Shown piece after piece: positions 8,461 to 41,980 of a stretch of DNA of 64,000 nt. The stretch spans positions 40,633-104,632 of the forward strand of contig MEOR01000081.1 in NCBI GenBank assembly GCA_001769295.1, read 5' to 3'. Every line of letters starts with the position of its first letter. Positions within the stretch are counted from its first letter, which is position 1. The position numbers and the translations under genes are program-made. A model generated the notes under the pieces. It was given only the letters and a program-made list of their open reading frames with translations. It had not been told where the DNA came from and did no database searches. Source of the DNA: Bacteroidetes bacterium GWF2_49_14 (GTDB lineage Bacteria > Bacteroidota > Bacteroidia > Bacteroidales > UBA12481).

Positions 8461-8476
8461 CTGGCAGAAGCTTTAT

Positions 8477-10213: not shown

Positions 10214-10386
10214 GATTATCAGTCTTGGTAAAAACCTCTTAACTATAAAATGCCCAGTTTATGAAATCGAGAATAAAAGTACGAATTGAATCATGTTTGA
10301 CCGCACTGCCTTATGTCCATTAAACGAATCTTTTATAAACTTTTTTATCAACATAATTGTTTGGTAAGGTAAACATTTAACGTAAA

Positions 10387-10935
10387 ATGAAAAGAATAAT
10401 TGTTTTAGCCTTTTGTGCTTTAACCTTCTTTGGTTCCGATGCGCAGGACCGGAAACCGGCTGGTTTTTATGACTTTGTGGTTAAGGATATTGACGGTAAG
10501 GAATTCAAGTTCAGAGAGCTTAAAGGTAAGAAGGTGATGGTAGTCAATACGGCTTCAAAGTGTGGGTATACCCCGCAATATGAGCAATTGCAGGAATTAT
10601 ATACCCAATTCGGGAGAGAAAAGTTTGTTATCATTGGCTTTCCTGCTAACAACTTCAAGGGCCAGGAACCTGGTTCCAATGAGCAGATAAGGGAATTCTG
10701 CACGTCAGAATTCAATGTAACTTTTCCTATGATGAGCAAGATATCAGTAAAGGGTGATGACATGGATCCGCTTTATCAGTGGTTGACTCGCAAAGAACTG
10801 AATGGTGTACTCGATTCTGAGGTTAAATGGAATTTCCAGAAATACCTGGTGGATGAAAAAGGGGCGCTTGTCAGGGTCATTCCTTCCAAGGAGAGCCCGA
10901 TGAGTGAGGAAATCGTGGGATGGATTACTAAGTAA
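10387..10935 (+). CDS. gpx: Glutathione peroxidase
   Basis: 182 aa. VVNTASKCGYTPQYEQLQELY and GFPANNFKGQEPGSNEQIREFC are canonical GPx motifs (Cys type). Signal peptide present. Confidence 0.9.
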   Translation: MKRIIVLAFCALTFFGSDAQDRKPAGFYDFVVKDIDGKEFKFRELKGKKVMVVNTASKCGYTPQYEQLQELYTQFGREKFVIIGFPANNFKGQEPGSNEQIREFCTSEFNVTFPMMSKISVKGDDMDPLYQWLTRKELNGVLDSEVKWNFQKYLVDEKGALVRVIPSKESPMSEEIVGWITK

Positions 10936-10962
10936 AACCTGCAGGATTTTTAAAAAGTTATG

Positions 10963-10996
10963 CAAAGCTTGCCATTGGCAGGCTTTGTTTATTTTT
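10963..10996 (+). terminator. Rho-independent terminator after gpx
   Basis: Stem caaagcttgcc (10963..10973), loop att, stem ggcaggctttg (10977..10987, one G-U pair), followed by tttattttt. Confidence 0.6.
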
Positions 10997-12302: not shown

Positions 12303-12350
12303 GCTCGGTCTGACCGATTTTAGTAATTTAGACGGATTAACATTTTGTAT

Positions 12351-13946: not shown

Positions 13947-13955
13947 TTGATCATA

Positions 13956-14966
13956 ATGGCAAAGTACAAGAAACTAATTCTTAACATTTTAAAGTACCTC
14001 CTCTTTTTAAGTGTGGGCATCGGCCTCTTTCTATGGGTGTACCGCGACCAGGATATGAATTCACTATGGGCCGGCCTGTCAGAATTTCATTACGGCTGGA
14101 TAATTGCATCGCTCGGCATAGCCCTCCTCAGTCATTTCCTTAGGGCACTTCGCTGGAGAATGCTTCTTGATTCAATAGGATACAAACCGGGAGTCCTGAA
14201 CGTTTTTTTATCTATCCTGGTTATGTATCTGGCTAATTTTGCAGCTCCGAGAATGGGTGAAGTCACGCGGTGCGGGATCCTGACCCGATATGAAAAAATT
14301 CCCTTTACCGCCCAGTTAGGGACAGTGGTTATAGAACGGATGGTTGACGTTGTTATCCTGCTCCTGATAATCATTTGCGTATTGTTATTTGACTGGAATG
14401 TTCTTACGGATTATCTGAGTGATAAAATGAGTGTCCGGGATTCCGGAAAGTACTCATTCCTGACATCCTGGTGGTTTTTATCAGTAGCTGGCCTCTTTGT
14501 TTTCCTTGGAATTCTTGCGGTTGTCTTTCGGAGGACACTCCTGAAAGCAAGCATAACCAGGAAAATAGTGTCGTATTTTGAAAAATTCGTCGAAGGACTT
14601 AAATCAATTTTGCACTTGAAAAAGCCGCTGATTTTCATCCTTCTTACCATTGGAATCTACGCCTGCTATTTCATGATGACCTGGTTTGTGATGATTGCCT
14701 TTACTCCAACCATGCACCTTTCACCGTTCGTGGCTCTTGCGGTGCTTGCCATGGGTAGCGTCGGAATGGTCATTCCATCCCTGGGGGGGATTGGTACCTA
14801 CCACAGTTTTGTTGTTGCCACCCTGAAATTATACGGCACTTCAGCATACAACAGCACCTTACTGGCTTTTGTCCTTCATGGTTCAACATCCGTTTTTCTG
14901 ATTTTTATCGGAGCAATTGCCCTGATTATTCTGCCGGTTGTGAATCCGTCAAGGAAACTGTTTTAA
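13956..14966 (+). CDS. Lysylphosphatidylglycerol-synthase-TM / flippase-like (UPF0104) membrane protein
   Basis: ORF 13947..14966 (ATG at 13956). Polytopic membrane protein. LLSHFLRALRWRMLL and AAPRMGEVTRCGIL are typical of this family. Confidence 0.6.
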   Translation: MAKYKKLILNILKYLLFLSVGIGLFLWVYRDQDMNSLWAGLSEFHYGWIIASLGIALLSHFLRALRWRMLLDSIGYKPGVLNVFLSILVMYLANFAAPRMGEVTRCGILTRYEKIPFTAQLGTVVIERMVDVVILLLIIICVLLFDWNVLTDYLSDKMSVRDSGKYSFLTSWWFLSVAGLFVFLGILAVVFRRTLLKASITRKIVSYFEKFVEGLKSILHLKKPLIFILLTIGIYACYFMMTWFVMIAFTPTMHLSPFVALAVLAMGSVGMVIPSLGGIGTYHSFVVATLKLYGTSAYNSTLLAFVLHGSTSVFLIFIGAIALIILPVVNPSRKLF

Positions 14967-15059
14967 TTATTTTTACAATTTAAAGAGCTTTTCTCTGAAC
15001 CTATCTGCTTCTTCGTTGTCTAATCACTGTAAATAATTGATTCACGATCGATTCCACTT

Positions 15060-15947
15060 ATGAATGTCCAGCGCTACAGTATCAGTGATCTTGAAAAACT
15101 CACGGGAATAAAGGCTCATACCATAAGGGTATGGGAGAAGCGCTATGGAATCATAAGTCCGGAAAGGACCGATACAAATATCCGCTTCTATTCAGTCAGT
15201 GACCTTCACCGGCTCCTGAACATCAGCTTTCTAAACCGGAACGGGTTTAAAATCTCGTTGATTTCGGGCATGAACGACCGGGAAATTGATCAGGAGGTTT
15301 CAAGAATAAGTGAAAAGCCCGGTGCCGATGAGGGTTTTGTACCTGATTTGATAACCGCCGTCAGCAACCTTGATGAAGACTTGTTTGAAAGGGTGCTTAA
15401 TACCTCCATCCTCAAACTTGGTTTTGAGTCGGCTTTTCAGGAAGTTGTTTTTCCATTGCTGGAGAAGGTTTTACTGATGTGGCAACTGGGACGGATAAAC
15501 GCTTGCCAGGAGCGTTTTGTCAATAATCTGGTACGACATAAACTGGTTGTTGCCATAGATGGGTTAGTCGGTCAGAATGAAATCAGCAAAAAAAACTTTC
15601 TCCTCTTTCTTCCGTCAGGGCATTATGATGAAATTCAGCTTCTATTTGCCAATTATATTCTCCGGAAGTTGGGCGATCATGTAATTTACCTGGGACCCTC
15701 GATCCCGCTGGATCATTTGAGATCCCTTAACGGGAAAACAACTATCGATTATCTGGTTGTCAGCATTAATCCAGGCTTTCCGGAAAAGGAATTTGAAAAG
15801 TATTGTCAACAGTTGACCGAGATTTTCCCACAAAGTCTGATTGGGGTCATCACCCCGCCGGTTGAATACAATGTTCCGATTTCCAGTAAGGTACGCCTTA
15901 TATGCTCCTCCAAGGGGTTTCATCAAGTCCTGGAGTCTTTCTCCTGA
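15060..15947 (+). CDS. MerR-family transcriptional regulator with B12-binding-like C-terminal domain
   Basis: 295 aa. YSISDLEKLTGIKAHTIRVWEKRYGIISPERTDTNIRFYSVSDL is a MerR HTH. The C-terminal ~130 aa has a Rossmann-like B12-binding-domain pattern (FLLFLPSGHYDEIQLLFANYILRKLGDHVIYLG). Confidence 0.7.
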   Translation: MNVQRYSISDLEKLTGIKAHTIRVWEKRYGIISPERTDTNIRFYSVSDLHRLLNISFLNRNGFKISLISGMNDREIDQEVSRISEKPGADEGFVPDLITAVSNLDEDLFERVLNTSILKLGFESAFQEVVFPLLEKVLLMWQLGRINACQERFVNNLVRHKLVVAIDGLVGQNEISKKNFLLFLPSGHYDEIQLLFANYILRKLGDHVIYLGPSIPLDHLRSLNGKTTIDYLVVSINPGFPEKEFEKYCQQLTEIFPQSLIGVITPPVEYNVPISSKVRLICSSKGFHQVLESFS

Positions 15948-16071
15948 TCCTTATTTAGATAAAATTTAGCCTGATTTTTATAATCAGCAGATTGTCAATT
16001 TGATGATCATGCAACTTATTTAGAGAGTTAGCCAGATTGTGTGGTTTTGTTCAAGCAATAGTTAAACAAGA

Positions 16072-16103
16072 TTTGTATTTTTTACACTAAGTGAATATCT
16101 TTG
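16072..16103 (+). promoter_or_regulatory. Candidate Bacteroidota primary-sigma promoter (-33 TTTG / -7 TAnnTTTG) for the ECF sigma gene
   Basis: TTTG at 16072..16075, a 20-nt spacer, then TATCTTTG at 16096..16103, about 40 nt upstream of ATG 16144. Confidence 0.4.
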
Positions 16104-16143
16104 TCTAAGAAATACAAACCAAAAGATTAACAAAACATACGCT

Positions 16144-16647
16144 ATGACAGCACTTGAATTCAACCACCAACTCATGGTTCTTCAGCCAAAACTTGGTTTT
16201 TTCGCAAAGAGTCTGACTGCTGATCCGGAAGATGCAAAAGACCTTATGCAGGAGACTATTTTCAAGGCGCTTACCAATCGTGACAAATTCCAGGGAGATA
16301 AAAACCTGAAAGCATGGGTGTTTACAATTATGAAAAACACTTTTATCAATAATTATCGAAGGAGTGTCAGGTCAAACACTTTGATCGATTCAACGGATAA
16401 TTCTTATTATTTGAATCTGGGGACAGAATCAGTTTTTCAGACCCCGGAAGCCGCGCATAATGAAAAGGAGATTCGCAACGCCATTAGCGAACTGCCAGAA
16501 GATTACAGAATTCCATTTGAAATGCATACAAAAGGGTATAAGTACAAAGAGATTGCGGAGTACCTTGATCAACCCCTCGGTTCGGTTAAGAGCAAGATTT
16601 TCTTTGCCAGGCGAAGACTTATGGAGCGCCTGAAGGATTTCAGGTAA
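16144..16647 (+). CDS. RNA polymerase sigma-70 factor, ECF subfamily
   Basis: 167 aa. Region 2 (DAKDLMQETIFKAL...LKAWVFTIMKNTFINNYRR) and region 4 (LPEDYRIPFEMHTKGYKYKEIAEYLDQPLGSVKSKIFFARRRL). Confidence 0.85.
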   Translation: MTALEFNHQLMVLQPKLGFFAKSLTADPEDAKDLMQETIFKALTNRDKFQGDKNLKAWVFTIMKNTFINNYRRSVRSNTLIDSTDNSYYLNLGTESVFQTPEAAHNEKEIRNAISELPEDYRIPFEMHTKGYKYKEIAEYLDQPLGSVKSKIFFARRRLMERLKDFR

Positions 16648-16653
16648 CAATGC

Positions 16654-16678
16654 AAGCCGGTTTAACCGGCTTTTTTTT
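16654..16678 (+). terminator. Rho-independent terminator after the ECF sigma gene
   Basis: aagccgg / tttaa / ccggctt hairpin followed by a T-run (16671..16678). Confidence 0.7.
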
Positions 16679-16740
16679 GCTTACCTTTAAACTCTTAACC
16701 TCTATCAAAGTCAAACATCAGAATTTAAAAACCAATTTGT

Positions 16741-17136
16741 ATGAAAAAAACTCTCTGTTTATCAGTCGTCCTTGGGATGTTCCTGGTTATGGGAACTATG
16801 GCCCAGAATCCAAACATGAATCAGCAAGATTTTCAGGCCAGAAGGCAACAGCAGATCGATAACCTTAAAAAGGAATTGACGCTGACCAAGGAGCAGAATA
16901 CAAAATTTGATGCGATTTATAAGGATTTTAATGAGAAATCCGCAGCTGCAATGCAGAATGCCGGAGAAGATCGTGAAGCTATGCGGGCCAAAAGGCAGGA
17001 GCTGACTAAGGATCGTGATGCCAAGATTGAAAAGATCCTGACTCCGGAACAGATTAAGAAATGGAAGGCCTACCAGGAAAAACTAGCTGCTGAACGGGCG
17101 AAAATGCAGCGTGGTGGCGGCGGCGGTCGTAATTAA
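16741..17136 (+). CDS. Periplasmic LTXXQ-motif (Spy/CpxP-like) protein
   Basis: 131 aa. Signal peptide, helical K/E/Q-rich sequence with LTLTKEQ and ILTPEQ (LTXXQ motifs), and a Gly5 tail. Confidence 0.5.
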   Translation: MKKTLCLSVVLGMFLVMGTMAQNPNMNQQDFQARRQQQIDNLKKELTLTKEQNTKFDAIYKDFNEKSAAAMQNAGEDREAMRAKRQELTKDRDAKIEKILTPEQIKKWKAYQEKLAAERAKMQRGGGGGRN

Positions 17137-17144
17137 TCACATAA

Positions 17145-19733
17145 TCAGCGGATATTCAGATCTGCCTTAACAATAGTTCCCTGCCCCTGGATGGTTAAAA
17201 GATAATCACCGGGAGCAGGGAATTTTATTTCCGGCATAGGATACAAGCCGGTATCTTCCTTGAAACTGATAACGTGATTCCAGCTCCAGCGGTTAATTCC
17301 TGTTTCCGCCTCAAAACGTGTACTGAAGATTTCTTTATCTTTCTGATCGGTGAGGATTATCACCATGGATCCGGCGGTTGGCTGATACCAGTAGACCTCA
17401 GAATCGGCAGATGTAAGCCAGTTAAGATCACCCTGAAAGTCCTTTTGCGCCGGCAGCTTCCCACTTTTGAGGGCTAGGAAACCCGCTTCACCAGGTGCAA
17501 TGGACTTGTAAAAGCGCCTCACCGGTTCTGCAAACAGCGTAAAAAGGCTTAGACCGTGCGTGGCAGCGACCAAAAATCCGTTGTCTCCTGCCCAGGCAAG
17601 TTTCTGAACACTAGCTGTGGGAAGCGTGGCACTCAGTGAAGTCCAGGTATTACCCCGGTTGGCAGAAACGAAGACCCCGCGATCCGTGCCAATATAGATA
17701 AGGTCCTGCATAACCGGATCTTCAAGAATATAATTAACCCTGTCAACCGGTAAGCCTCTTGAAATGGACTTCCAATTTACCCCTTTGTTTTCTGATATAT
17801 ACAGGTAGGGCTTATAATCATCCTCATCCAGGGCTCTCATGGCCAGATAAACGCGTCCCTCCTCATGAACCGACGGCATGATACAGCAGACTGCCTTGAT
17901 CGGCAGGTCATTGCTGATTTCAATCCAATTGATCCCGTCATCCCGGGATACCCAGAGAGCACCTTTCTCAGTACCGGCATACAAAAGCCCCGACTTTACC
18001 GGAGATTCTGCCAGGGCCGTCATTGCACGGCTTTTTCTGAAAGGATCCTCAGAATAGCAAAGATCAGGACTGAGCCTGAACCAGTTATCACCACGGTCAA
18101 TGCTGTGATATACCTTATTAGCTCCATAATACAAGGAGGTAGGGTTGTGTTTTGATATAAACCATGGGGTAAACCAACTGGTTCGGATGGGTGATTCCCC
18201 GGCTTCACTTGAGGGTTGAATAAAACGAGTTTCTCCGGTTCTGATATTCTTCTTATTCAGGTTGCCATTTTGGGAAGTATAATAGCACAGATCCGGATCC
18301 GTGGGATCGGGCATAGAGGTAAAACCATCACCACCCGACCATGGATCGAGCCAAACGTATTCCCAGCCTTCCGGTGCGCTGCCCGGAACCACAGAATTAA
18401 GCGGACCCTTGATACAGGAATTATCCTGGGTTCCGCCATAAGCTACGGGTACCTCCGGACGGTTGTCAACAATCAGATCATAAAATTCACCAGTGGGTAT
18501 GTTGTTGCAATGCAGCCAGTTCCGGCCGCCATCGTGACTTATGTATATGCCGCCGTCATTTCCCAGGATCAGGTTTTCGGGGTTGAAAGGATCCAGGTAT
18601 AGATCGTGATTATCCAGATGCAATGCAGTGCCCTTATTGGGAATAAGATGTGTAACCTGCCCTCCGAGCTTCGTAAAAGTCTTGCCTCCGTCATGGGACT
18701 GAAGGGTATGAACCCCAAGAACATACACCTTATTCCGGTCATGTGGGGAAACCCTGATATCACCAAACGCCCAGCCGAACCCGGAGTAAATGTCAAGGGA
18801 AGTGGAATGTGTTCTTTTCCAAGTTTTTCCGCTATCATCAGACCTGTAAACTTCGGCTCCGATCAGTTTTTCGTCTCCGCCGGTTTTTAGTGTGTTCCTG
18901 TTATCGATTACGGCATAAACCACATTCGGATGAGACGGGCTGATCGATAGTCCTATCCTGCCGATACCCTCATTTACAGGAAATCCTGATTCACACTTTT
19001 CCCATGTGGCGCCGTAGTTTTCCGAACGGAAGATTGCCGAGCGCTGACCCTGAATCATTTCCCAGGAGGCGGCAATTATAATTTTATGTACCGGATCCCA
19101 CACTACATCCACAATACCAACACTATCGGAAATGTGAAGAATCTTCTCCCATGAGTCGCCGCCATTCCGGCTGAGAAACAGCCCCCGCTCCGCATTTGGG
19201 GACCACATGTGGCCAATGCAGGCGGCAAAAACAAGGTTCGCATCGTTTGGATCAACCACGACACGACCAATATGGTGGCTGTCTGGCAAGCCTTTTTGCG
19301 TCCAGGTCTTTCCCCCATTAACAGATTTGTAGATTCCGGTTCCGGTATAGGTATAACCCCGGGTAGCCCTCAGATTCTCACCTGTACCCAGATAGAGAAT
19401 TTCAGGATTTGAGGGGGCAACTGCAATATCACCAATGCTGAAGGTGGCCTGATCTTTGAAAATGCATGCCCAATGAAGTCCCTGGTCGGTTGTTTTCCAT
19501 AAACTTCCCGATCCGAATCCGGCATAAATGACACCCGGCTGGTCGGGGGGGCAATCAATCGATTCAATTCTTCCGCCTTGAAAGGAGGGACCTGCCGGTA
19601 CCCATTCCAGCTTTTTGAAGACAGAGGCGTCCTCCATTTTTTGTACCTCTGAATAAGTTTCGAGTGGATTCTGGGCTGTCAGCATAACAGGGCTGACCAG
19701 CACCCAAATAAGCAGACTGACCTTTCTAATCAT
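17145..19733 (-). CDS. Secreted BNR/Asp-box repeat protein (sortilin-VPS10 / GH74-like double beta-propeller)
   Basis: 862 aa, signal peptide. At least 11 S-x-D-x-G-x-T-W-type boxes, including TTDQGLHW, SVNGGKTW, SRNGGDSW, SENYGATW, SDDSGKTW, SHDGGKTF, SHDGGRNW, SIDRGDNW, SRDDGINW, SENKGVNW and SANRGNTW. Confidence 0.7.
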   Translation of the reverse strand: MIRKVSLLIWVLVSPVMLTAQNPLETYSEVQKMEDASVFKKLEWVPAGPSFQGGRIESIDCPPDQPGVIYAGFGSGSLWKTTDQGLHWACIFKDQATFSIGDIAVAPSNPEILYLGTGENLRATRGYTYTGTGIYKSVNGGKTWTQKGLPDSHHIGRVVVDPNDANLVFAACIGHMWSPNAERGLFLSRNGGDSWEKILHISDSVGIVDVVWDPVHKIIIAASWEMIQGQRSAIFRSENYGATWEKCESGFPVNEGIGRIGLSISPSHPNVVYAVIDNRNTLKTGGDEKLIGAEVYRSDDSGKTWKRTHSTSLDIYSGFGWAFGDIRVSPHDRNKVYVLGVHTLQSHDGGKTFTKLGGQVTHLIPNKGTALHLDNHDLYLDPFNPENLILGNDGGIYISHDGGRNWLHCNNIPTGEFYDLIVDNRPEVPVAYGGTQDNSCIKGPLNSVVPGSAPEGWEYVWLDPWSGGDGFTSMPDPTDPDLCYYTSQNGNLNKKNIRTGETRFIQPSSEAGESPIRTSWFTPWFISKHNPTSLYYGANKVYHSIDRGDNWFRLSPDLCYSEDPFRKSRAMTALAESPVKSGLLYAGTEKGALWVSRDDGINWIEISNDLPIKAVCCIMPSVHEEGRVYLAMRALDEDDYKPYLYISENKGVNWKSISRGLPVDRVNYILEDPVMQDLIYIGTDRGVFVSANRGNTWTSLSATLPTASVQKLAWAGDNGFLVAATHGLSLFTLFAEPVRRFYKSIAPGEAGFLALKSGKLPAQKDFQGDLNWLTSADSEVYWYQPTAGSMVIILTDQKDKEIFSTRFEAETGINRWSWNHVISFKEDTGLYPMPEIKFPAPGDYLLTIQGQGTIVKADLNIR

Positions 19734-33530: not shown

Positions 33531-33888
33531 GCCGGCAGCAGACCGTTCTATCGCTGGTCCGTGAAAGCGGACGAGAGGAAAGTCCGGGCAACGCAGAGCG
33601 CCATGCTTCCTAACGGGAAGGTGCCGAGAGGCACAGTAGTGTAACAGAAAACAACCGTCCCGGATTACGGGATAAGGGTGAAAAGGCGGGGTAAGAGCCC
33701 ACCAGTCCGTATGGTGACATTCGGAGTTGTACACCTCATGGGTTGAAAGGCCATGTATACCGGCAATTAAGGGCTGCTCGCCCGATGTCGGGGGGTAGGT
33801 CGTTTGAGTAAACGGGCAACCGGTTACCTAGATAAATGATAGAATTCCGGCAACGGAAACAGAACCCGGCTTATAGGTCTGCTGCTTT
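33531..33888 (+). ncRNA. rnpB: RNase P RNA, bacterial type A
   Basis: Universal motifs GAGGAAAGTCCGGGC (P4 5' strand), ACAGAAAACAACCG, AAGGGTGAAA..GCGGGGTAAGAGCCCACC and ACAGAACCCGGCTTAT (P4 3' strand). P1 pairing is gcagcagacc (33535..33544) with ggtctgctgc (33876..33885). Ends are approximate. Confidence 0.9.
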
Positions 33889-34040
33889 TTTATCCTCGTT
33901 TTTTAAACGTTCATCAAATTGTTTTAAACTTTCACTTAACTAAGCCGAAATGAATTGGTTATGCCCGGCTTTTTTTTTATTTTTGAAATGACTTAGAAAC
34001 AAGAGTGTTAAGAATAAAATATTTGACGTTCATAAAAAAG

Positions 34041-34088
34041 TTTCAAAATTGGGGTTACCTTTTTATAAAGAACAGGATCAACAGATGG
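34041..34088 (+). promoter_or_regulatory. Shared regulatory block, copy 1 (upstream of and running into the sigma-factor start codon)
   Basis: TTTCAAAATTG (34041..34051) plus a 36-nt block GGTTACCTTTTTATAAAGAACAGGATCAACAGATGG (34053..34088). The block is 27/36 identical at identical spacing to 38966..39001 upstream of the peptide gene. Confidence 0.45.
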
Positions 34089-34660
34089 TGCATTACACCG
34101 TTGAAGCCATCCTCGAGGGGCTGAAAAACAGTGACAATAGTGTACTTGAGTTTGTCTACAGGAAGTATTTTCCGATCGTAAGGTTCTTTGTCATAAAAAA
34201 CAGCGGAACGGATGAGGATGCAAAGGATATTTTCCAGGAAGCAATGATCCTCATGTATAAAAGGCTGAAAGATGGTACTCTTGATTTAACCTGTGCCTTC
34301 AAAACCTATCTCTACTCAGTATGCCGCATACTCTGGATGAGACATCTTGAAAGGAGACAGATCAAAACAGACGACCTATCGGACAATCAGGTTTTCATAG
34401 ATATTGAAGACCAGATTGAAGATCAGGTTACTGAGCAGGAGAGATTTCGTTTGTACCAGAAGCATTTTCAGACGCTTCACAAAGATTGTCAGGAAATCTT
34501 ACGACTCTTCCTGAAGAAAGTTCCGCTTAAGGAGATTGCCCAGCTGGTTAATATTAAAAGTGACAAATACCTGAAGAAAAGAAAGTTTGAATGTAAGGAG
34601 ACTTTGACTAAGCGAATACAAAATGACCCTGATTATAAACGATTAAGAAATGATAGTTGA
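34085..34660 (+). CDS. ECF-like sigma-70 family RNA polymerase sigma factor
   Basis: ORF 34049..34660 starts at TTG. ATG 34085 (MVHYTVEAILEGL) is preferred because the upstream 36 nt recur non-codingly at 38966. Region 2 is DAKDIFQEAMILMYKRL...FKTYLYSVCRILWMRHLERR. Region 4 is CQEILRLFLKKVPLKEIAQLVNIKSDKYLKKRKFECKETL. Confidence 0.8.
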   Translation: MVHYTVEAILEGLKNSDNSVLEFVYRKYFPIVRFFVIKNSGTDEDAKDIFQEAMILMYKRLKDGTLDLTCAFKTYLYSVCRILWMRHLERRQIKTDDLSDNQVFIDIEDQIEDQVTEQERFRLYQKHFQTLHKDCQEILRLFLKKVPLKEIAQLVNIKSDKYLKKRKFECKETLTKRIQNDPDYKRLRNDS

Positions 34661-35780
34661 TATAAGTTTATCAGAATTGTTCGACCGGTACCTCGAAGAT
34701 GACCTCAACATCCTCGACAGGCAGGAAATCGAACTTCGGCTAGCTCAGGATCCGGCTTTTGCCAATCGGTTTAAGCTCCACAAAGAGATTGATCAGGCTG
34801 TGATGGAGAGCGAAATAATGCAATTCCGGAAACAGCTTGAAATGATCCAGACCGATAATCCCGATCTTGTTAAAGACAGTCCTATGGAAGTTGCGAGGTT
34901 TTTCGAACCCGAAATTGACCGTGCGATCCTGGAAGAAGATGTAATGAGCCTGCGAAATCAATTGAGCAGGATTCATGCTTCCATAATCGATGATGTTGAC
35001 GCTTCCGAGATTCCTGGTTATGCAATTATTGAGGAAGCAATTATAAATCAGGATGCTGTGGTTCTGCAGGCTGAGCTGAAGGAGTTTACTAATTCACGCT
35101 TGTCGGGAGCCTTGCCGGAAGAGCTTGAAGGAATTAAACTCAGCAGGGAAATTGACCAGGCTCTTCTTGAGGAGGATGTCATGGAACTAAGAGAGAAACT
35201 CACCGCCATTGGAGACCAGGTAACAGGAAAAACTCTTGTTGTCAGTTCCAGACGGAAAATTATAACCACAATTACTTCCATTGCGGCTGTCCTAACCTTT
35301 CTGATCTCCGGCACCATAGTACTGATGCAGAATCCCACTATTTCCGGTAACCAGAGATTGTCCGGTATGTTTGAGAATTACGGAAGCATCAGTGAATCAC
35401 GTGGACCGGTGGATGCAGTAAACAAAATAACAAACACTGCAGTTCACCTGTATAATAATAAACAATATCCATTGGCCGGTCCACTGTTTGATGTCTACCT
35501 TGAACAGAATGATTCTGATGATGAAGTGGTCAAAGTTTATGCCGGTCACTGTGCCCTGGAAACCAATGATCCTGACAAAGGGATACGTTATCTTTCAAGT
35601 ATTACCTCAGAAGCCCCGGCCTATATAGATGCTCAGTGGTACCTGGCTGGCTGTTATCTGAGAAAGGATCAACCGGCTGTAGCAATTGACATAATTGAAA
35701 AACTAAGTAAAAACGATAAAATAGACAGGTATCCTTATCCAATCGAAAAACTGCTGAAAAAACTTCGCAAGGTCGAATAA
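34650..35780 (+). CDS. Putative anti-sigma factor: single-pass membrane protein with four internal repeats and a TPR-like C-terminal domain
   Basis: 376 aa. 11-nt overlap with the sigma gene. The N-terminus LFDRYLEDDLNILDRQEIELRLAQDPAFANRF resembles anti-sigma N-terminal domains. Four copies of EID-A-L-EEDVM-LR--L--I lie at aa 46-66, 88-108, 126-146 and 167-187. TM helix at about aa 204-226. The C-terminus holds 2-3 TPR-like helix pairs. Confidence 0.5.
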   Translation: MIVDISLSELFDRYLEDDLNILDRQEIELRLAQDPAFANRFKLHKEIDQAVMESEIMQFRKQLEMIQTDNPDLVKDSPMEVARFFEPEIDRAILEEDVMSLRNQLSRIHASIIDDVDASEIPGYAIIEEAIINQDAVVLQAELKEFTNSRLSGALPEELEGIKLSREIDQALLEEDVMELREKLTAIGDQVTGKTLVVSSRRKIITTITSIAAVLTFLISGTIVLMQNPTISGNQRLSGMFENYGSISESRGPVDAVNKITNTAVHLYNNKQYPLAGPLFDVYLEQNDSDDEVVKVYAGHCALETNDPDKGIRYLSSITSEAPAYIDAQWYLAGCYLRKDQPAVAIDIIEKLSKNDKIDRYPYPIEKLLKKLRKVE

Positions 35781-35876: not shown

Positions 35877-38825
35877 TTATATCCCCGCTTTTGGCGGGGA
35901 TTTCTTTTTCCATTGTGTAACAAAAAGACCAAAGAGACTTACTGGAATCAGTAATAACCATAAAATCGCATAAGATTTAGGTTTCGGGAAATCCAAAGTC
36001 AAGTTCTGCCCCACAGGTAAAACTGCCGCCCAGAACCGAGGATGAGCTTGCAGCTGATCAGCTGCCGCGAGGTACGCTAACTTACTGTTCCTTAATGCAG
36101 CTGCAATAGGCTGGTCCTTAATCAAATTGCTATAAAATCCGGACATAATCTTCTCGCTTGATTTGTCATCCACCGTCCATAGTGTCATAATTATTACCGG
36201 GCAGCCAGCAAATAGAAAAGCTCGCCCAAGGCTCATAATCCCTTCGCCCGCAGCCAATTCCCCGGATCCGGTTTCGCAAGCGGACAAAACCACCAGGTTG
36301 GAATTCAGGGACAGATTATAAATCTCATGGCTGAACAGGCAACCATCCTCCGTTTTGTCCGAGCCCGGTGTGAAAACCAGGCATGAGTTCATGGGCTTTT
36401 CCCGGTCGGTTAAGGTATGCATTGCCAAATGCAGAATGGTATAATCTGAGCAAATGTTTTTAAAGGTTCCCTCCCTGGCTCCATTTTTTATGAGCAGCCT
36501 TCCCCCGATTGATTCCCGGGCGGATCTGGCCTCTTTCAGTGTTCCACTCAGCTGTGGCAGCGCATCCCCCTTGTTTCTCAGGAACTCTATTGATTGTATT
36601 CTGGCAGGTTTATAAACAGGCGCAACTGCCAGGATAGACCTGGTGGCCTCCTTCTTATGAACAGGATGGAATTGATATAAAGTTGCGGTAAACCCGTATG
36701 AGACTATATGTTCCCTTATGAGATACTCATAACTGTGGAAGTCATGTTTCACGGCCTTACCCGATGGTTTTATCAAGGCATCAAATGAAATGTAATTAAG
36801 CAATCCATCAGGAATTATTATCAATTCCTTATTCTCAATCATTCCTTCAAATGGTTGGATAAGAATACTATAAAGGCCGGATGAGGCTTCATAAAAGGAC
36901 CTCATCTCACTGCCATTATAGGTGGAATACCCACCTTTCATGTAGTTGATTAAAAAGTCAGTTCTTGCCATGGTCAGGCTATCCAGTGGAATCATGAAAA
37001 CCTGGCTTTCCGGTCGGCTCACCGCAATGCAAATGATAGCTTCAGCGGTCATGGAATACTGAAGCATGACTTCATTTTCGCGCAAGGACGCTGCCGTCTG
37101 ATCCAGGCTGATGACCGACCGGTCGAATTTGGAACGATAATAGTCCGGATACTTTGTCTCATAAGTTCTTATCAGGCTATCTTTCTTAATGTTAAGCCGA
37201 AAACTCTCAGCCTCAAGCTCCTTTATCAATTCTATATTTTTAGCGCTCGAGGCGGACTGCCTTGCAAGATAGCCCTGGACTTCGGATAGCTTGATATCAA
37301 TTTCTTTTTCAAGGGACAGATCCTCGGCGAGAATGATTCCTGATTTTGTTTCACTGTCGCTCATTGCCCTCCATAGTCCTGCCGATTTGGATATTTCGAT
37401 GAACTCGAAAAGGTTTTTGAGATCATCTCTGTCGAGGGTCCGTAAATAGAGGGTATATGCTACGCTGATCATCTCATCGAAAGAGCTTTCCTGCCTTCTG
37501 CTCAACTCAATCTGGCTTGAAGACTGCAGAAGTGTTCCTCGCGTTGAATCTATCAGGTTAGCTGTTGCGGCATAGTTTCTCATAGCAAGCCGGATATAAT
37601 CGATTTGGCCACTTTCTTCGCCCATATCTCTGTAAATACGAGATGTAAGAAGCAACAGGTTAATCAGATCCAGCGTATTCAGGCTTCTGATATTTTCCGG
37701 AGCATTCTCAATGTCTGCATCGCCAGGACCGGTTGCAATAAGTTTGAGAACCTCCCTTGTTCTTAATAATGCTTCTGAATAATTTCCTGTGGATCTAAGG
37801 AGATCTCCTTCAAGAAGTTTAGTCTCAACCAAGAGGTCAAGCGGTGGGTTAGCCTGCCCTTCGATTATCCGGGCCATCGAGGCCAACTCCGCAAGAGCTT
37901 TAAGTTCATCTTTATCAGCCAGTTGAATAAGTTGCGCTTTATTAATCATGGCCAGGAACCTAATCCGATCGTCAGGCTCAGCATCGGCCCTTTTATTCAA
38001 CACAATATCAAGAACTTCGCGTGCTTCAACAAAACGATTCAATTCAATCAGCGAATTGGAAAGGTTAGTATAAACCATGTCCTCATCGGTGATATTGAAT
38101 TCCTTAATCATTTCAATACTCTTATAAAAAGCCTCGATGGCTGCTTCATGATTAAAAAGGTTTTGGTAAACCAATCCCTTGTTATTCAGTAGTTTGGCTT
38201 TGTTGATGTTAGCCTTTTGACTCAATGTGCTATCCTTTATACAATCATTAAATATTAACATTGCCTGCTGCAAATACTCCAGTGCGCTATTGTATTCCCC
38301 GGCCTGTTTCCGCACGGTGGCTAAATTCAGGTACAATGAACCAATACCTAACTTGTCTGGCCGTGTCATTGACCTCAGCACAGCTATGGCCTTAAGATAG
38401 GTACTTTGACTTTCCGCAAGCCGGGAAATATCCTTGAGGAGTACTCCGGTGTTGTTTAAGGCTCTGTACATCCAATCCAGGTCATCATCCGGTTTGCCAG
38501 CAAAATCGACCGACTCAATCCATTCAATTAATACAGGCAAGTCTTTAGTATTTAGAAATCTATTATTGTAACGACTTATAACGTAGGCAATTATAACTTC
38601 AGTGTGGAAGTCCTGGTCGGGGCTCTGCAAGTATTTCACCAAGGGTTCAATGATTGGTTTCACCTTTTCTTCAGGCAAATTTTTAATCATATCCAGAATC
38701 TCATTGGCTCGGTTTTGATCGATTGCCTGGTAAGGATTGACGGACTGACAATGTCCGGAAGCCGACAACAAAATCAGGCTTATCAGCATTCCAACTGCAA
38801 TATTTTGAAAACTGTTTCTATTCAT
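35877..38825 (-). CDS. TPR-repeat CHAT-domain (caspase-like) protease, exported, with a C-terminal membrane anchor
   Basis: 982 aa. Signal peptide MNRNSFQNIAVGMLISLILLSASGHCQ. About 450 aa of TPR-like repeats (YLNLATVRKQAGEYNSALEYLQQA, LNNKGLVYQNLFNHEAAIEAFYKS and others). CHAT domain with ILHLAMHT (His) and NLVVLSACETGSGE (Cys). C-terminal TM YAILWLLLIPVSLFGLFVTQW followed by KKKSPPKAGI. Confidence 0.85.
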   Translation of the reverse strand: MNRNSFQNIAVGMLISLILLSASGHCQSVNPYQAIDQNRANEILDMIKNLPEEKVKPIIEPLVKYLQSPDQDFHTEVIIAYVISRYNNRFLNTKDLPVLIEWIESVDFAGKPDDDLDWMYRALNNTGVLLKDISRLAESQSTYLKAIAVLRSMTRPDKLGIGSLYLNLATVRKQAGEYNSALEYLQQAMLIFNDCIKDSTLSQKANINKAKLLNNKGLVYQNLFNHEAAIEAFYKSIEMIKEFNITDEDMVYTNLSNSLIELNRFVEAREVLDIVLNKRADAEPDDRIRFLAMINKAQLIQLADKDELKALAELASMARIIEGQANPPLDLLVETKLLEGDLLRSTGNYSEALLRTREVLKLIATGPGDADIENAPENIRSLNTLDLINLLLLTSRIYRDMGEESGQIDYIRLAMRNYAATANLIDSTRGTLLQSSSQIELSRRQESSFDEMISVAYTLYLRTLDRDDLKNLFEFIEISKSAGLWRAMSDSETKSGIILAEDLSLEKEIDIKLSEVQGYLARQSASSAKNIELIKELEAESFRLNIKKDSLIRTYETKYPDYYRSKFDRSVISLDQTAASLRENEVMLQYSMTAEAIICIAVSRPESQVFMIPLDSLTMARTDFLINYMKGGYSTYNGSEMRSFYEASSGLYSILIQPFEGMIENKELIIIPDGLLNYISFDALIKPSGKAVKHDFHSYEYLIREHIVSYGFTATLYQFHPVHKKEATRSILAVAPVYKPARIQSIEFLRNKGDALPQLSGTLKEARSARESIGGRLLIKNGAREGTFKNICSDYTILHLAMHTLTDREKPMNSCLVFTPGSDKTEDGCLFSHEIYNLSLNSNLVVLSACETGSGELAAGEGIMSLGRAFLFAGCPVIIMTLWTVDDKSSEKIMSGFYSNLIKDQPIAAALRNSKLAYLAAADQLQAHPRFWAAVLPVGQNLTLDFPKPKSYAILWLLLIPVSLFGLFVTQWKKKSPPKAGI
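35882..35909 (+). terminator. Rho-independent terminator of the sigma/anti-sigma operon, overlapping the last codons of the convergent CHAT gene
   Basis: tccccgc (35882..35888) / ttttg / gcgggga (35894..35900), followed by tttcttttt. Confidence 0.55.
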
Positions 38826-38942: not shown

Positions 38943-39001
38943 TTTCAAAATTGTATAGAAAACGAGGTTACCTTTTTAAGAAAGGAGGGATTAATAGATG
39001 G
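38943..39001 (+). promoter_or_regulatory. Shared regulatory block, copy 2 (upstream of the double-glycine peptide gene)
   Basis: TTTCAAAATTG (38943..38953), 12 nt of intervening sequence versus 1 nt in copy 1 (an 11-nt difference), then GGTTACCTTTTTAAGAAAGGAGGGATTAATAGATGG (38966..39001). Its ATG (38998) opens only a 5-codon mini-ORF (METVS*). Confidence 0.45.
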
Positions 39002-39036
39002 AAACTGTAAGTTAAAAACTTCTAAAATTCAAAGAA

Positions 39037-39168
39037 ATGGAACGGTTCAATCTCTCTTCGCTTGTTGCTGCTGCTCTCGCAGTTGATGAAATGATCAATG
39101 TTCGTGGTGGTGATGGTCCTGTAACCCCGCCAGTTAAAAAGGGCGAAGAAAGCGACATCATTCTTTAG
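39037..39168 (+). CDS. Double-glycine-leader precursor peptide (43 aa), predicted substrate of the adjacent C39 ABC exporter
   Basis: Not in the ORF track (<60 aa). Manual translation: MERFNLSSLVAAALAVDEMINVRGG|DGPVTPPVKKGEESDIIL*. The leader fits the GG-leader consensus (Gly -1/-2, Val -4, Met -7, Glu -8, Leu -12). It lies 97 nt upstream of the peptidase-domain ABC transporter, on the same strand. Confidence 0.65.
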   Translation: MERFNLSSLVAAALAVDEMINVRGGDGPVTPPVKKGEESDIIL

Positions 39169-39264: not shown

Positions 39265-41454
39265 ATGCCTTCATTAACCTATACCCGACAACTCGATGCG
39301 AAAGATTGCGGTCCTGCCTGTTTACGGATGATCGCTGGTTATTACGGCCAAAAATACTCCCTCCAATTTTTACGGGAAAGATCCTTTATCACCCGTCAAG
39401 GTGTAAGTTTACTTGGTATCAGCGACGCGGCAGAGTCAATCGGCTTTTCAACCCTTGGCGTTCGTCTCACCTGGGAACAACTGCTTAATGAGGCCCCCAA
39501 ACCTAGCATTATCCATTGGAACCAAAACCATTTTATCGTTCTGCAAAAAATCGGTGCGCGAAAAGTTCACGTTGCGGATCCGGCTCTTGGTATTTTGAAG
39601 TATTCGATCAAGGAGTTTAAAAAAGGCTGGATTTCAGCTGTCCATGAAGGGAATGAGGTTGGTTTGTGCCTCTTGCTAGAACCCACGCCTGAGTTTTATA
39701 AGATTGAGGGTGAACCTCAAAAACGGAACTCATTCCGATTTTTGCTGGAGTATTTCCGGCCACACAAGAAATACCTTGTCCAGCTTGTTAGCGGTATGCT
39801 GGTAGGATCGGTCATTTTACTGATTCTTCCCTTCCTGACCCAATCTGTTGTGGATATCGGAATTAGCAATCAGGATATGGGATTCATCTACCTTGTCCTT
39901 ATTGCTCAGTTGGTTTTAATTGCGGGAAGAACCAGTGTTGAGTTTATTCGATCCTGGATTCTTCTGCACATCAGTACAAGGATTAATATCGCACTAATAT
40001 CAGATTACCTGGTCAAATTGATGAGGCTTCCCACTTCATTTTTTGATACCAAAATGACCGGTGATATTTTGCAGAGGATAGGCGATCATACCCGCATTGA
40101 AACTTTCCTTACTCAATCAACCCTTAATGTTCTGTTCTCAATATTTAACCTGTTTGTTTTCAGTATTGTATTAGCAATTTATAATGCAAAGATCTTACTC
40201 TTGTTTTTAATTGGCAGTTTGTTGTATTTACTTTGGATCAGTTTGTTTCTTCGTAAGCGACGTGAACTTGACAACCGAAGGTTTATCCAGTTGTCAGAAA
40301 ATCAGAACAGCATTATTCAGATTGTATCTGGCATGCAGGAGATCAAGCTTAATACCTGTGAGCAGCAGAAGCGCTGGGACTGGGAGTTCATTCAGGCCAA
40401 GATATTCAGAATCAGGGTTAAGAGTCTTGCCTTGGTGCAATACCAACAGGTGGGTTCGGTGGTAATTAATGAAACAAAGAATGTGCTGATCGCATTTCTG
40501 TCGGCAAAGGCTGTTATTGAAGGCCAGATGTCGCTTGGTATTATGTTTGCAATCCAGTTTATAGTGGGGCAGATGAACAGCCCCATTGACCAGCTTATTA
40601 ACTTCTTTCATGCGGCACAAGATGCAAAGATCAGTCTTGAGAGGTTAGCTGAAGTACATGATCAACCTGTCGATGGAGTAGGCAGGGAGAGTAAGGTTGA
40701 CGAATTGCCGGCCAATATCAGCCTTAAAATTTCCGGATTGGTTTTTCAGTATGAAGGCCCGCATTCTCCAAGGGTGGTAGATGACATAACATTTGATGTA
40801 CCCGAAAACAAGGTAACTGCCATTGTCGGTTCGAGTGGAAGCGGAAAAACCACCCTTATTAAAATCTTGCTGGGATTATACCGGCCAGTTTACGGCGAGG
40901 TCCAGCTAGGCAATAGTTCCCTGGAGAATTACAATCAAAGGATTTATCGAAGCAAATGTGGGGCAGTTTTGCAAGACGGTTATTTGTTTTCAGACACGAT
41001 TGCAAAAAACATAGCATTGAGTGATGAATCGATTGATCCTGGAAAACTGGCCTTTGCTGCTGAAAAAGCTAATATCTTGGAGTTTATCAGGAGTTTTCCC
41101 CTTGGATTCAATTCGCGGATAGGGGTTGATGGACATGGTATAAGTCAGGGACAGAAGCAGCGGTTGCTGATTGCACGTGCGATTTACAAGGATCCCAGGC
41201 TTATTTTCTTTGATGAGGCCACGAATTCCCTGGATGCAAATAATGAAAGGATCATTATGGAAAACCTGGCAGAATTTTTTAAAGGCAGGACGGTTGTCAT
41301 TGTGGCGCACAGGCTTAGCACAGTTAAAAATGCTGATCAGATATTGGTTATGGAGAAGGGCAAGATAATTGAAACCGGAAAGCATGAGGAATTAGTGCGG
41401 TATCAGGGAGCCTACTATAATCTTGTTAAAAATCAGCTCGAATTAGGAATATAG
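39265..41454 (+). CDS. Peptidase-domain-containing ABC transporter (PCAT; C39 peptidase + TMD + NBD)
   Basis: 729 aa. C39 domain TRQLDAKDCGPACLRMIAGYYG (Gln/Cys), IIHWNQNHFIVLQK (His), VHVADPA (Asp). Six TM segments. NBD with GSSGSGKTT (Walker A), ISQGQKQRLLIARA (signature) and LIFFDEATNSLD (Walker B). Confidence 0.9.
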   Translation: MPSLTYTRQLDAKDCGPACLRMIAGYYGQKYSLQFLRERSFITRQGVSLLGISDAAESIGFSTLGVRLTWEQLLNEAPKPSIIHWNQNHFIVLQKIGARKVHVADPALGILKYSIKEFKKGWISAVHEGNEVGLCLLLEPTPEFYKIEGEPQKRNSFRFLLEYFRPHKKYLVQLVSGMLVGSVILLILPFLTQSVVDIGISNQDMGFIYLVLIAQLVLIAGRTSVEFIRSWILLHISTRINIALISDYLVKLMRLPTSFFDTKMTGDILQRIGDHTRIETFLTQSTLNVLFSIFNLFVFSIVLAIYNAKILLLFLIGSLLYLLWISLFLRKRRELDNRRFIQLSENQNSIIQIVSGMQEIKLNTCEQQKRWDWEFIQAKIFRIRVKSLALVQYQQVGSVVINETKNVLIAFLSAKAVIEGQMSLGIMFAIQFIVGQMNSPIDQLINFFHAAQDAKISLERLAEVHDQPVDGVGRESKVDELPANISLKISGLVFQYEGPHSPRVVDDITFDVPENKVTAIVGSSGSGKTTLIKILLGLYRPVYGEVQLGNSSLENYNQRIYRSKCGAVLQDGYLFSDTIAKNIALSDESIDPGKLAFAAEKANILEFIRSFPLGFNSRIGVDGHGISQGQKQRLLIARAIYKDPRLIFFDEATNSLDANNERIIMENLAEFFKGRTVVIVAHRLSTVKNADQILVMEKGKIIETGKHEELVRYQGAYYNLVKNQLELGI

Positions 41455-41455
41455 C

Positions 41456-41980
41456 ATGACTCACAGTGATCCTCAAATCGAACTGCGCCAGGAAGAACTC
41501 CGGGAGATACTCGGAATTGTTCCGCCATGGATTGTAAGGTGGGGGACTGTTCTGATAGCCATGGTGATACTTACCCTGTTAATTGGGGCAGCCTGGTTTC
41601 GATATCCCGACCGGATCAGCAGCCAGGTTGTCCTGACCGCTTCGAATCCAATTAAAGGGGAACTTTTTTTGTCAGTCAAAGATGCCGGAAAAGTGAAGAT
41701 TGGGAATCGCGTTGTTTTACATATTGATAATTATCCCTACATGCAATACGGAATGGTAAAGGGAACGGTTGAGCAAATCTCATTATGGCCTGAGGCAGAA
41801 TACTATAGGGTCGAGATAAGCCTGCCAGAAGGTATGAAATCGACCTATAAAAAAGAGCTGGTGTTTTCCAAGAATATGACTGGCCAGGCGCAGATTATTA
41901 CCGATAAGATGAGCCTTCTGGTTAGAATACTTGATCCTGTTAAAGGCCTTATTCGCAGAAAGAATAACCAGGATGTTTAA
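41456..41980 (+). CDS. Short HlyD-family (membrane fusion protein-like) protein: TM anchor plus beta-barrel domain only
   Basis: 174 aa. Starts 1 nt after the PCAT stop. N-terminal TM WGTVLIAMVILTLLIGAAWF. VVLHIDNYPYMQYGMVKGTVEQISL...MTGQAQIITDKMSLLVRIL resembles the C-terminal barrel of HlyD proteins. No lipoyl or coiled-coil hairpin region. Confidence 0.6.
   Translation: MTHSDPQIELRQEELREILGIVPPWIVRWGTVLIAMVILTLLIGAAWFRYPDRISSQVVLTASNPIKGELFLSVKDAGKVKIGNRVVLHIDNYPYMQYGMVKGTVEQISLWPEAEYYRVEISLPEGMKSTYKKELVFSKNMTGQAQIITDKMSLLVRILDPVKGLIRRKNNQDV

Follow-up and report, generated by a model that had tools for sequence, protein, structure and literature searches.

A 64,000-nucleotide stretch of contig MEOR01000081.1 from Bacteroidetes bacterium GWF2_49_14 (assembly GCA_001769295.1, positions 40,633 to 104,632; hereafter, the window) encodes a caspase-like protein that appears to be the third component of a conserved Bacteroidota module, together with a sigma factor of the extracytoplasmic function (ECF) type and a single-pass anti-sigma factor. 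The gene (35877–38825 (−); an open reading frame (ORF) with an ATG start) specifies 982 amino acids arranged as a signal peptide, TPR repeats, a CHAT domain, and a transmembrane (TM) helix. The product, which is 100% identical to a hypothetical protein of the same bacterium, very probably lies outside the cytoplasm and is anchored through its C-terminus. Its gene and the adjacent sigma/anti-sigma pair probably form a functional unit of some kind, because their proximity survives rearrangement across several bacterial families. We propose tentatively, at slightly less than an even chance, that a signal activates the CHAT protease, that a linker in the anti-sigma factor is then cut, and that site-2 and cytoplasmic proteolysis follow.

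The CHAT domain (residues 585–940; 36006–37073 (−)) is defined by a full-length match to the Pfam profile PF12770 (residues 649–940, profile positions 5–289 of 289, E = 1.4e-50; score 172.8 bits, cut-off 24) and by an AlphaFold model computed from 35 input sequences (pLDDT 83.9, pTM 0.79). It is preceded by a TPR/helical-repeat solenoid (residues 37–580; 37086–38717 (−)), in which residues 121–316 match TPR_12, TPR_2, TPR_8, and TPR_1 of Pfam and which is predicted to be the part that binds a ligand or partner. The model opens with a helix (residues 3–21) and a disordered segment (residues 22–31), passes through the all-helical solenoid and the mixed α/β CHAT domain, and ends with an 11-residue linker and a second helix at residues 952–974. 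In the model, a helical-repeat domain comes before the caspase-like fold, an order also seen in separase and Csx29; Csx29, DdvA, and separase are the top Foldseek matches of the model (E 2e-14 to 1e-10). The predicted catalytic residues are His803 (36417–36419 (−)) and Cys850 (36276–36278 (−)). Conservation of this dyad, on which an earlier reading of the sequence as an active protease depended, holds up: both residues are invariant in alignment A1 and are present in 91/95 homologs. The four that lack the full dyad are short, aberrant paralogs. Because His and Cys are kept so widely, the CHAT protein is, by its sequence, not a pseudoprotease, and catalysis is predicted.

Topology was assigned from hydropathy, the positive-inside rule, cleavage-site statistics, and conservation across the family. 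Hydropathy reveals three segments, at residues 6–26, 862–880, and 952–970. The first is the h-region of a signal peptide (residues 1–26, MNRNSFQNIAVGMLISLILLSASGHC; 38748–38825 (−)) that is also seen in the model, has an n-region with one basic residue only, and ends in SASGHC|Q with a predicted cut before Q27. Signal peptidase I sites of Bacteroidetes favor Gln at the +1 position, and the sequence SGHC|Q fits such a site. The preliminary description of this gene, made from the letters of the DNA without database searches, had recognized a cleavable signal peptide, and the homologs bear this out: the pattern [ASGCTVIL]x[ASGC]Q directly follows the h-region in 57 of the 81 homologs with a signal peptide-like N-terminus, compared with about 5% expected. 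A lipoprotein signal was considered and rejected; the residue at −1 before the Cys is His (Ile in the closest homolog), and no lipobox is present.

The strongest hydrophobic segment, residues 952–970 (Kyte–Doolittle score 2.21), lies at the opposite end of the protein. There, a linker (residues 941–951) leads to a TM helix (residues 952–972, YAILWLLLIPVSLFGLFVTQW) and to a basic cytoplasmic tail, KKKSPPKAGI (residues 973–982); the three elements together span 35880–36005 (−) and are assigned from hydropathy, the model, and the homologs. A C-terminal TM helix with a basic tail is found in 72 of 92 complete homologs, and a signal peptide-like N-terminus in 62 of the 67 tail-anchored homologs with an intact 5′ end. 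A sortase-type signal (PEP-CTERM or LPXTG) was also rejected, as no conserved motif precedes the helix in eight homologs; the helix is therefore an anchor rather than a sorting signal. The preliminary description had counted the C-terminal helix as the sole hydrophobic segment besides the signal peptide, overlooking the stretch at residues 862–880. The latter is not a TM helix: it contains Arg868, aligns with a conserved stretch of the homologs, and forms a buried helix and strand of the CHAT core in the AlphaFold model.

The mature periplasmic part is predicted to comprise residues 27–951, or 925 amino acids, in agreement with the roughly 930 residues of TPR and CHAT that had been placed in the periplasm earlier; hydropathy, the model, the 72 tail-anchored homologs, and the cleavage motif all point the same way. 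Judged from sequence, the architecture of signal peptide, TPR, CHAT, and tail anchor is a trait of the family, because the TM helix, the signal peptide-like N-terminus, and the Gln-type cleavage sites recur among the homologs. The model predicts that the CHAT end, not the TPR end, is held no more than 11 residues from the membrane. The active site is thus predicted to be extracytoplasmic and close to the membrane, as needed for a site-1 protease.

The sigma factor gene (34085–34660 (+); TIGR02937, 2.7e-17; Sigma70_r2) lies 1.2 kb from the CHAT gene and is convergent with it. The ORF as listed opens at a TTG (34049), but translation probably begins with the ATG at 34085, where relatives have TTG. 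Overlapping the sigma gene by 11 nucleotides is the gene for an anti-sigma-type membrane protein of 376 amino acids (34650–35780 (+)). Hydropathy places its one TM helix at residues 208–226 (35271–35327 (+)), with RRK on the N-terminal side of the helix, an orientation with the N-terminus inside, and a C-terminal, periplasmic TPR-like domain at residues 256–376 (35415–35777 (+); TPR_19 match and AlphaFold model). These features give the neighbor of the CHAT gene, as first described, the layout of an anti-sigma factor with a periplasmic TPR-like domain. The AlphaFold (AF2) model of this protein is poor overall (pLDDT 64.5); its helical-repeat domain (residues 256–375) is confident, and the juxtamembrane linker, at about residues 226–255, is unstructured and of low confidence.

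The linker (29 residues, 227–255) contains a conserved dipeptide, R251–G252 (35400–35405 (+)). Position 251 is Arg in 38/43 homologs, the next residue is Gly or Ser in 32/43, and the motif to which they belong, (L/I)(F/Y)xx(Y/F)xPY...R(G/S), is the most conserved periplasmic feature of the anti-sigma family. Relatives encoded beside CHAT genes are usually about 250 amino acids long, with some 80 cytoplasmic residues, one TM helix, and some 150 periplasmic residues. The cytoplasmic part of the window protein (residues 1–207; 34650–35270 (+)) exceeds that of most relatives by about 120 residues. A motif such as ID.A.(L/M)EEDVM.LR..L occurs three to four times in it and looks like a repeated anti-sigma helix. 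No zinc motif of the CHCC or HxxxCxxC type is visible in the sequence of the window anti-sigma factor.

To follow the association between the CHAT gene and the sigma/anti-sigma pair, one genome per species was scanned. At least 592 relatives were confirmed, and neighborhoods were counted in the best 80 loci (individual loci carry L numbers below), in which ORFs were called and then searched with iterated profiles. Nearly all of these loci belong to Bacteroidota, and they include Saprospiraceae, Flavobacteriaceae, Cyclobacteriaceae, Bacteroidales, and Sphingobacteriales. In 33/72 tail-anchored homologs, all from Bacteroidota, the CHAT gene has both an ECF sigma gene and a homologous anti-sigma gene no more than 3 kb away. 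Over equal amounts of DNA in the same loci, 38 sigma genes are found within 3 kb of the CHAT gene and 5 beyond, a 7.7-fold enrichment. The arrangement of the genes varies and may be operonic, convergent (as in the window), or divergent. In L003, L010, L025, L053, and L055, the sigma, anti-sigma, and CHAT genes occupy one strand with a gap of 0–114 nucleotides before the CHAT gene. The convergent arrangement is kept in L005, where CHAT identity is 47%, and in L086–L088, where anti-sigma identity falls as low as 38%.

These observations suggest a model for regulated proteolysis of the anti-sigma factor. A Sec-exported, caspase-like cysteine protease would lose its signal peptide, expose its TPR and CHAT parts to the periplasm, and remain tied to the inner membrane by its C-terminal helix. 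A periplasmic signal would bind the TPR part, and perhaps also the TPR-like domain of the anti-sigma factor, and its binding would activate the CHAT dyad. The protease would then cut the flexible juxtamembrane linker of the anti-sigma factor, for which Arg251–Gly252 is the candidate site, and a site-2 protease and cytoplasmic proteases would finish off the remainder. A site-1 role is plausible because the C-terminal helix would keep the CHAT domain close to the membrane and because the linker is flexible and carries a conserved Arg-Gly/Ser. We favor a cut in the linker since this segment is unstructured, contains the conserved Arg, and is matched by the habit of separase, a fold relative of CHAT that cuts after Arg (as quoted in PMC11506125). 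The freed sigma factor would transcribe from promoters of the form GGTTACC-N17-AT(C/T)AA. We infer the cleavage of the anti-sigma factor, the nature of the signal, and the role of these promoters.

The promoter-like motif is bipartite and occurs as GGTTACC-N17-ATCAA at 34053–34081 (+), 32 nucleotides before the sigma start, and as GGTTACC-N17-ATTAA at 38966–38994 (+), 71 nucleotides before the start of a small peptide gene and directed away from the CHAT gene. The 13-mer GGTTACCTTTTTA has exactly two copies in the 64-kb window, and the window's count of the motif at two or fewer mismatches was reached in 0/100 shuffles. The sigma-side copy is matched at every position in L001 and L005 (100%) and differs little in L086–L088. 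On the peptide side, both boxes are conserved and the 17-nucleotide spacer is variable in L086, L087, and L088; the same layout recurs in L037 and L009. Across relatives, the consensus is GGT(T/C)ACC-N17-AT(C/T/A)AA with spacing fixed at 17 nucleotides, and a slightly relaxed form of it has 24 matches in 1.22 Mb of loci, compared with 4.1 in shuffles. Support for the motif comes from Bacteroidales-like lineages only. Promoters of RpoE-type ECF sigma factors read GGAACTT-N16-TCAAA, and by analogy the bipartite motif resembles them. The motif was not found before the CHAT gene in the window clade. A conserved GGAAACTGTAA, which includes a five-codon mini-ORF, ATGGAAACTGTAAGTTAA (38998–39015), lies downstream of the peptide-side copy. 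Locus L083 contains two variant copies, GGTAACAATT...TTCCTATTAA, at 3426 (−) and 7263 (+); one is upstream of a peptide gene, and the other is downstream of an HlyD gene with no obvious target gene.

The small gene behind the second motif copy (39037–39168 (+)), which is divergent from the CHAT gene, encodes a 43-amino acid peptide with a double-glycine leader, MERFNLSSLVAAALAVDEMINVRGG|DGPVTPPVKKGEESDIIL. The leader shows the usual hydrophobic pattern and ends in VDEMINVRGG|D, and the adjacent ABC transporter begins with a C39 peptidase. The mature core, DGPVTPPVKKGEESDIIL, is 18 residues long, acidic, and rich in Pro. Compared with typical pore-forming bacteriocins, a core of this kind is atypical, and we consider it a candidate signaling peptide. 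In L001, the peptide is identical in amino acid sequence and its gene differs by one synonymous base; the core pattern (D/E)G..TPP(P)VK.G.E.DIIL is kept in L086–L088. These related genes (L001, 9658–9789; L086, 14369–14509; L087, 14328–14468; L088, 14351–14488) encode 43–46 amino acids with cores that end in DIIL.

The exporter (39265–41454 (+)) is a peptidase-containing ABC transporter (PCAT) with Peptidase_C39, ABC_membrane, and ABC_tran domains and matches to TIGR03796 and TIGR01193. Its residues 5–123 match Peptidase_C39 of Pfam at 2.2e-33, and it is predicted to process and export the double-glycine peptide. It is followed by a short HlyD-type adaptor of 174 amino acids (41456–41980 (+)) that matches only the C-terminal part of TIGR01843 (4.2e-12, profile positions 309–412 of 422). 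This adaptor consists of an N-terminal TM segment and the C-terminal β-barrel part; the coiled-coil and lipoyl part has been lost in a natural deletion. It is similarly short in L001 (171 amino acids) and L088 (174 amino acids); the syntenic gene encodes 438 amino acids in L086 and L087 and 432 in L083. The whole locus, comprising the sigma, anti-sigma, CHAT, peptide, exporter, and adaptor genes, is syntenic in L001, L086, L087, and L088. Unrelated double-glycine peptides with short acidic cores are encoded 165–213 nucleotides from the CHAT genes of L009, L037, and L083, the last of which also carries a C39 exporter. An anti-sigma-like second gene follows the peptide gene on the same strand in L037 (3257–4287 (−) and 6523–7530 (−)) and L009 (1–1475 (−)), and L037 encodes three further double-glycine peptides with Cys-rich cores. 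Membership of the CHAT gene in a peptide-export operon throughout the family was tried as an explanation and rejected, as just 2/72 loci have a C39 ABC gene within 3 kb.

It is tempting to speculate that the peptide and the sigma factor are joined in a self-inducing circuit, an idea suggested by the strictly spaced motif that the peptide gene and the sigma operon have in common. The mature 18-amino acid peptide, cut and exported by the C39 transporter, would be the best candidate for the signal because the motif precedes its gene and the adjacent transporter would export it. In the window clade, the sigma factor would drive its own operon and the peptide gene; the protease would be made independently, since the motif precedes the sigma and peptide genes and not the CHAT gene. 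Independence from the sigma factor is what one expects of the sensor in a self-inducing loop, and from the arrangement of these genes we infer that the CHAT protein acts upstream, not downstream, of the sigma factor in this clade. The full circuit, a Gram-negative form of peptide quorum sensing in which the peptide binds the TPR sensor, a site-1 cut occurs at the juxtamembrane Arg, and the sigma factor raises expression of the peptide and exporter genes as well as of the operon that encodes it, is unlikely to be right in every step.

Several observations weigh against the proposed sequence of events. Gene linkage is silent on which protein acts on which, and the connection between protease and anti-sigma factor is drawn from gene context; where the three genes form an operon, it is just as possible that the sigma factor controls production of the protease. 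No sigma gene lies within 3 kb in 39/72 tail-anchored homologs, and some genomes encode tandem CHAT paralogs (L010, L028, L039, L051), so the CHAT family does not pair one-to-one with sigma factors and may have other substrates. The peptide is a feature of few lineages: outside the window's own clade a C39 exporter is found within 3 kb in only 2/72 loci, and the association with double-glycine peptides is confined to Bacteroidales-like lineages. As for the motif, a Gibbs sampler (width 30) applied to 43 sigma upstream regions returned no shared motif (~10 bits). Were the motif a promoter, moreover, the sigma transcript would begin at or near the start codon, which is awkward because the TTG start of relatives ill suits a leaderless message. 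The catalytic cysteine must also stay reduced in the periplasm. Finally, no site-2 protease was found among the ten window ORFs tested, and one may be encoded elsewhere in the genome. Locus L010 deserves separate mention: three tail-anchored TPR-CHAT paralogs surround one sigma/anti-sigma pair at 7344–18499, which suggests several sensors or proteases per switch.

The strongest competitor, which we judge rather improbable, is that the CHAT protein senses for or partners the anti-sigma factor without cleaving it. The protein might process or destroy the exported peptide, as in maturation or quenching, or cut other periplasmic proteins; alternatively, the TPR-like domain of the anti-sigma factor might hold the protease inactive, as securin does with separase, such that release of one controls the other. 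Linkage of CHAT and sigma genes fits any physical partnership, and in four lineages the double-glycine peptide genes stand directly beside the CHAT genes. The anti-sigma-like paralog that follows the peptide gene in L009 and L037 and the many CHAT paralogs without a nearby sigma gene are likewise compatible with this explanation. However, the dyad is kept in 91/95 homologs, and proteolysis must therefore matter. A role in peptide processing faces the additional difficulty that removal of the leader is already explained by the exporter's C39 domain. Moreover, the top conserved periplasmic feature of the anti-sigma factor is an Arg in a flexible linker, not the surface of a folded domain.

Less probable again is a reading in which the sigma factor controls the CHAT protease instead of being controlled by it: the enzyme would belong to the regulon as an envelope protease produced when needed, for example in quality control, defense, or attack on a competitor, and the anti-sigma factor would sense the signal alone. 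The regulons of ECF sigma factors often take in neighboring genes, and by analogy with other ECF sigma factors the sigma operon would be autoregulated. In five loci (L003, L010, L025, L053, and L055), the CHAT gene sits 0–114 nucleotides beyond the anti-sigma gene, on the same strand, and the genes are probably co-transcribed. In the window clade, L009, and L037, by contrast, the CHAT gene and the sigma operon run toward or away from each other, and the CHAT gene is without the motif. Across loci, orientation changes while proximity stays, and in the fused relative DdvA the TPR-CHAT part belongs to the sensor. A cytoplasmic CHAT protein or a coincidental neighborhood is very improbable: the single basic residue of the n-region is outweighed by signal peptide-like N-termini with signal peptidase-type sites far above chance and by basic residues after the C-terminal helix in 72 homologs, and coincidence sits poorly with the 7.7-fold enrichment of sigma genes within 3 kb and with the recurrence of one specific anti-sigma family in 33/72 loci from many Bacteroidota families.

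Two characterized TPR-CHAT proteins bear on the proteolytic model that we prefer. Csx29 of the type III-E CRISPR "Craspase" cleaves Csx30, a protein that binds and inhibits the ECF-like CASP-sigma (PMC10028731). The window protein has the same TPR-CHAT fold (Foldseek E 2e-14, TM-score 0.41–0.52), and we propose for it the same role, namely that of a CHAT protease that cuts the inhibitor of an ECF-like sigma factor once a signal is bound. Unlike the window protein, Csx29 is cytoplasmic, is guided by RNA through Cas7-11, and is encoded in a CRISPR locus, whereas export signals are present in the window protein. The NCBIfam model for Csx29 (NF041237) scores the window protein at 17.6 bits against a cut-off of 300, and no genes for Cas7-11, Csx30, Csx31, or other Cas proteins are found among the neighbors called in L001 and L086–L088.

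The closer relative is DdvA of Myxococcus xanthus, a transmembrane anti-sigma factor with a periplasmic TPR-CHAT part of about 900 residues and a His-Cys dyad (PMC11506125). In the PDB, no sequence matches the window protein better than that of DdvA (8rot_B, E 3.5e-4), and the Foldseek match has an E value of 4e-14. Its bulky periplasmic domain was shown to block RseP, and its authors propose that signal-induced self-cleavage of the juxtamembrane linker constitutes the site-1 step, a reaction that they consider testable only once the signal is known (PMC11506125). The two systems share a TPR solenoid and a CHAT domain in the periplasm (predicted here), a His-Cys dyad, a paired ECF sigma factor, a flexible juxtamembrane linker near a membrane-proximal protease, and a proposed site-1-like role. 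DdvA, however, is one polypeptide in which an N-terminal zinc anti-sigma domain, a TM helix, a linker, and TPR-CHAT follow one another, whereas the window encodes two proteins. The window TPR-CHAT protein has a signal peptide and a C-terminal anchor, a reversed order with respect to the membrane, and no anti-sigma domain of its own, and no CHCC or HxxxCxxC zinc motif is visible in its partner. The CHAT domain of DdvA is reported to be without three helices (PMC11506125); the Pfam match of the window CHAT domain, in contrast, spans the whole profile. Fused DdvA homologs were found only in Myxococcota and one Comamonas (PMC11506125), whereas the family described here belongs to Bacteroidota.

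The window module is thus a split, tail-anchored Bacteroidota variant of TPR-CHAT sigma control, like DdvA cut into two genes. The preliminary description had presented a caspase-like enzyme as an alternative to DegS/Prc-type proteases and had cited only Csx29. The topology and the link to a sigma/anti-sigma pair hold up, and the site-1 role is a good hypothesis, but the novelty was overstated: with Csx29/Csx30 and DdvA as precedents, a caspase-like enzyme that cuts an anti-sigma factor is not new in principle. For the split Bacteroidota module itself, we found no description in the literature searched, the coverage of which was incomplete, such that an earlier account may exist elsewhere; the main text of the ECF classification paper does not mention CHAT. 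The locus also differs in setting. The sigma factor DdvS controls an island of CBASS and CRISPR genes (PMC11506125), whereas no defense genes were found at the window locus. A role in anti-phage defense was accordingly rejected: PADLOC assigned the CHAT protein, the sigma factor, and the anti-sigma factor to no defense family and returned nothing meaningful, and the neighbors are housekeeping genes and the peptide exporter.

Better known routes offer further comparisons. As in the DegS/RseA/RseP and PrsW/RsiW systems, an extracytoplasmic protease anchored in the inner membrane would stand beside a single-pass anti-sigma factor with a periplasmic domain (predicted here). DegS is activated by the C-terminal peptides of misfolded outer-membrane proteins, and activation by a peptide C-terminus is proposed here as well. 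DegS, however, belongs to the serine proteases and senses through a PDZ domain, and PrsW is embedded in the membrane, whereas the window enzyme would be a cysteine protease of clan CD that senses through TPR repeats; and in contrast to DegS- and PrsW-type cleavage, cleavage of the anti-sigma factor here is a proposal drawn from genes. The peptide end of the locus resembles the ComC/ComAB and BlpC/BlpAB systems of streptococci in having a short peptide with a double-glycine leader next to a C39 ABC exporter, and in that the peptide gene is apparently controlled by the regulator that the peptide would activate. The ComC and BlpC systems are Gram-positive and employ a histidine kinase and a response regulator. 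In the window, by contrast, the proposed receiver is a periplasmic TPR-CHAT protein with an anti-sigma/ECF sigma pair in a Gram-negative phylum, and the pairing of ligand and receiver is suggested by the genes.

Two further features lie within or beside the module. A strong terminator-like hairpin of the sigma/anti-sigma operon (35881–35901 (+)) has a 9-bp stem, six of whose pairs are GC, and a T-rich tail behind it. It reaches into the end of the convergent CHAT gene, over the codons for SPPKAGI. This overlap may account for the conservation of the SPPKAGI tail among close relatives. An RNase P RNA of bacterial class A (33535–33889 (+); RF00010, 263.5 bits, full-length) lies between an Smr-domain gene and the sigma gene, and it is the only known RNA family that Rfam identified in the two intergenic regions searched.

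To our knowledge, ECF sigma factors are the most numerous signaling devices of Bacteroidota, and for most of them we know of neither the triggering protease nor the signal. According to one published survey, a Bacteroidota genome encodes about 22 ECF sigma factors. A connection between TPR-CHAT proteases and sigma control has recently emerged in two cases, the cytoplasmic, RNA-guided Csx29 and the periplasmic, fused DdvA. New here are the split, tail-anchored form, its spread over many Bacteroidota families, and the peptide co-encoded with it in one clade. Because the parts are encoded by separate genes, each can be deleted or purified alone, and the window clade offers a candidate ligand and a candidate reporter promoter; a question left open for DdvA is thereby testable in this system. 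If the model is correct, it would add a cysteine-protease route to the regulated proteolysis of anti-sigma factors. The peptide would become the first ligand known for any anti-sigma pathway based on TPR-CHAT, DdvA-type self-cleavage would become directly testable, and the module might reveal peptide-based cell-to-cell signaling in a Gram-negative phylum.

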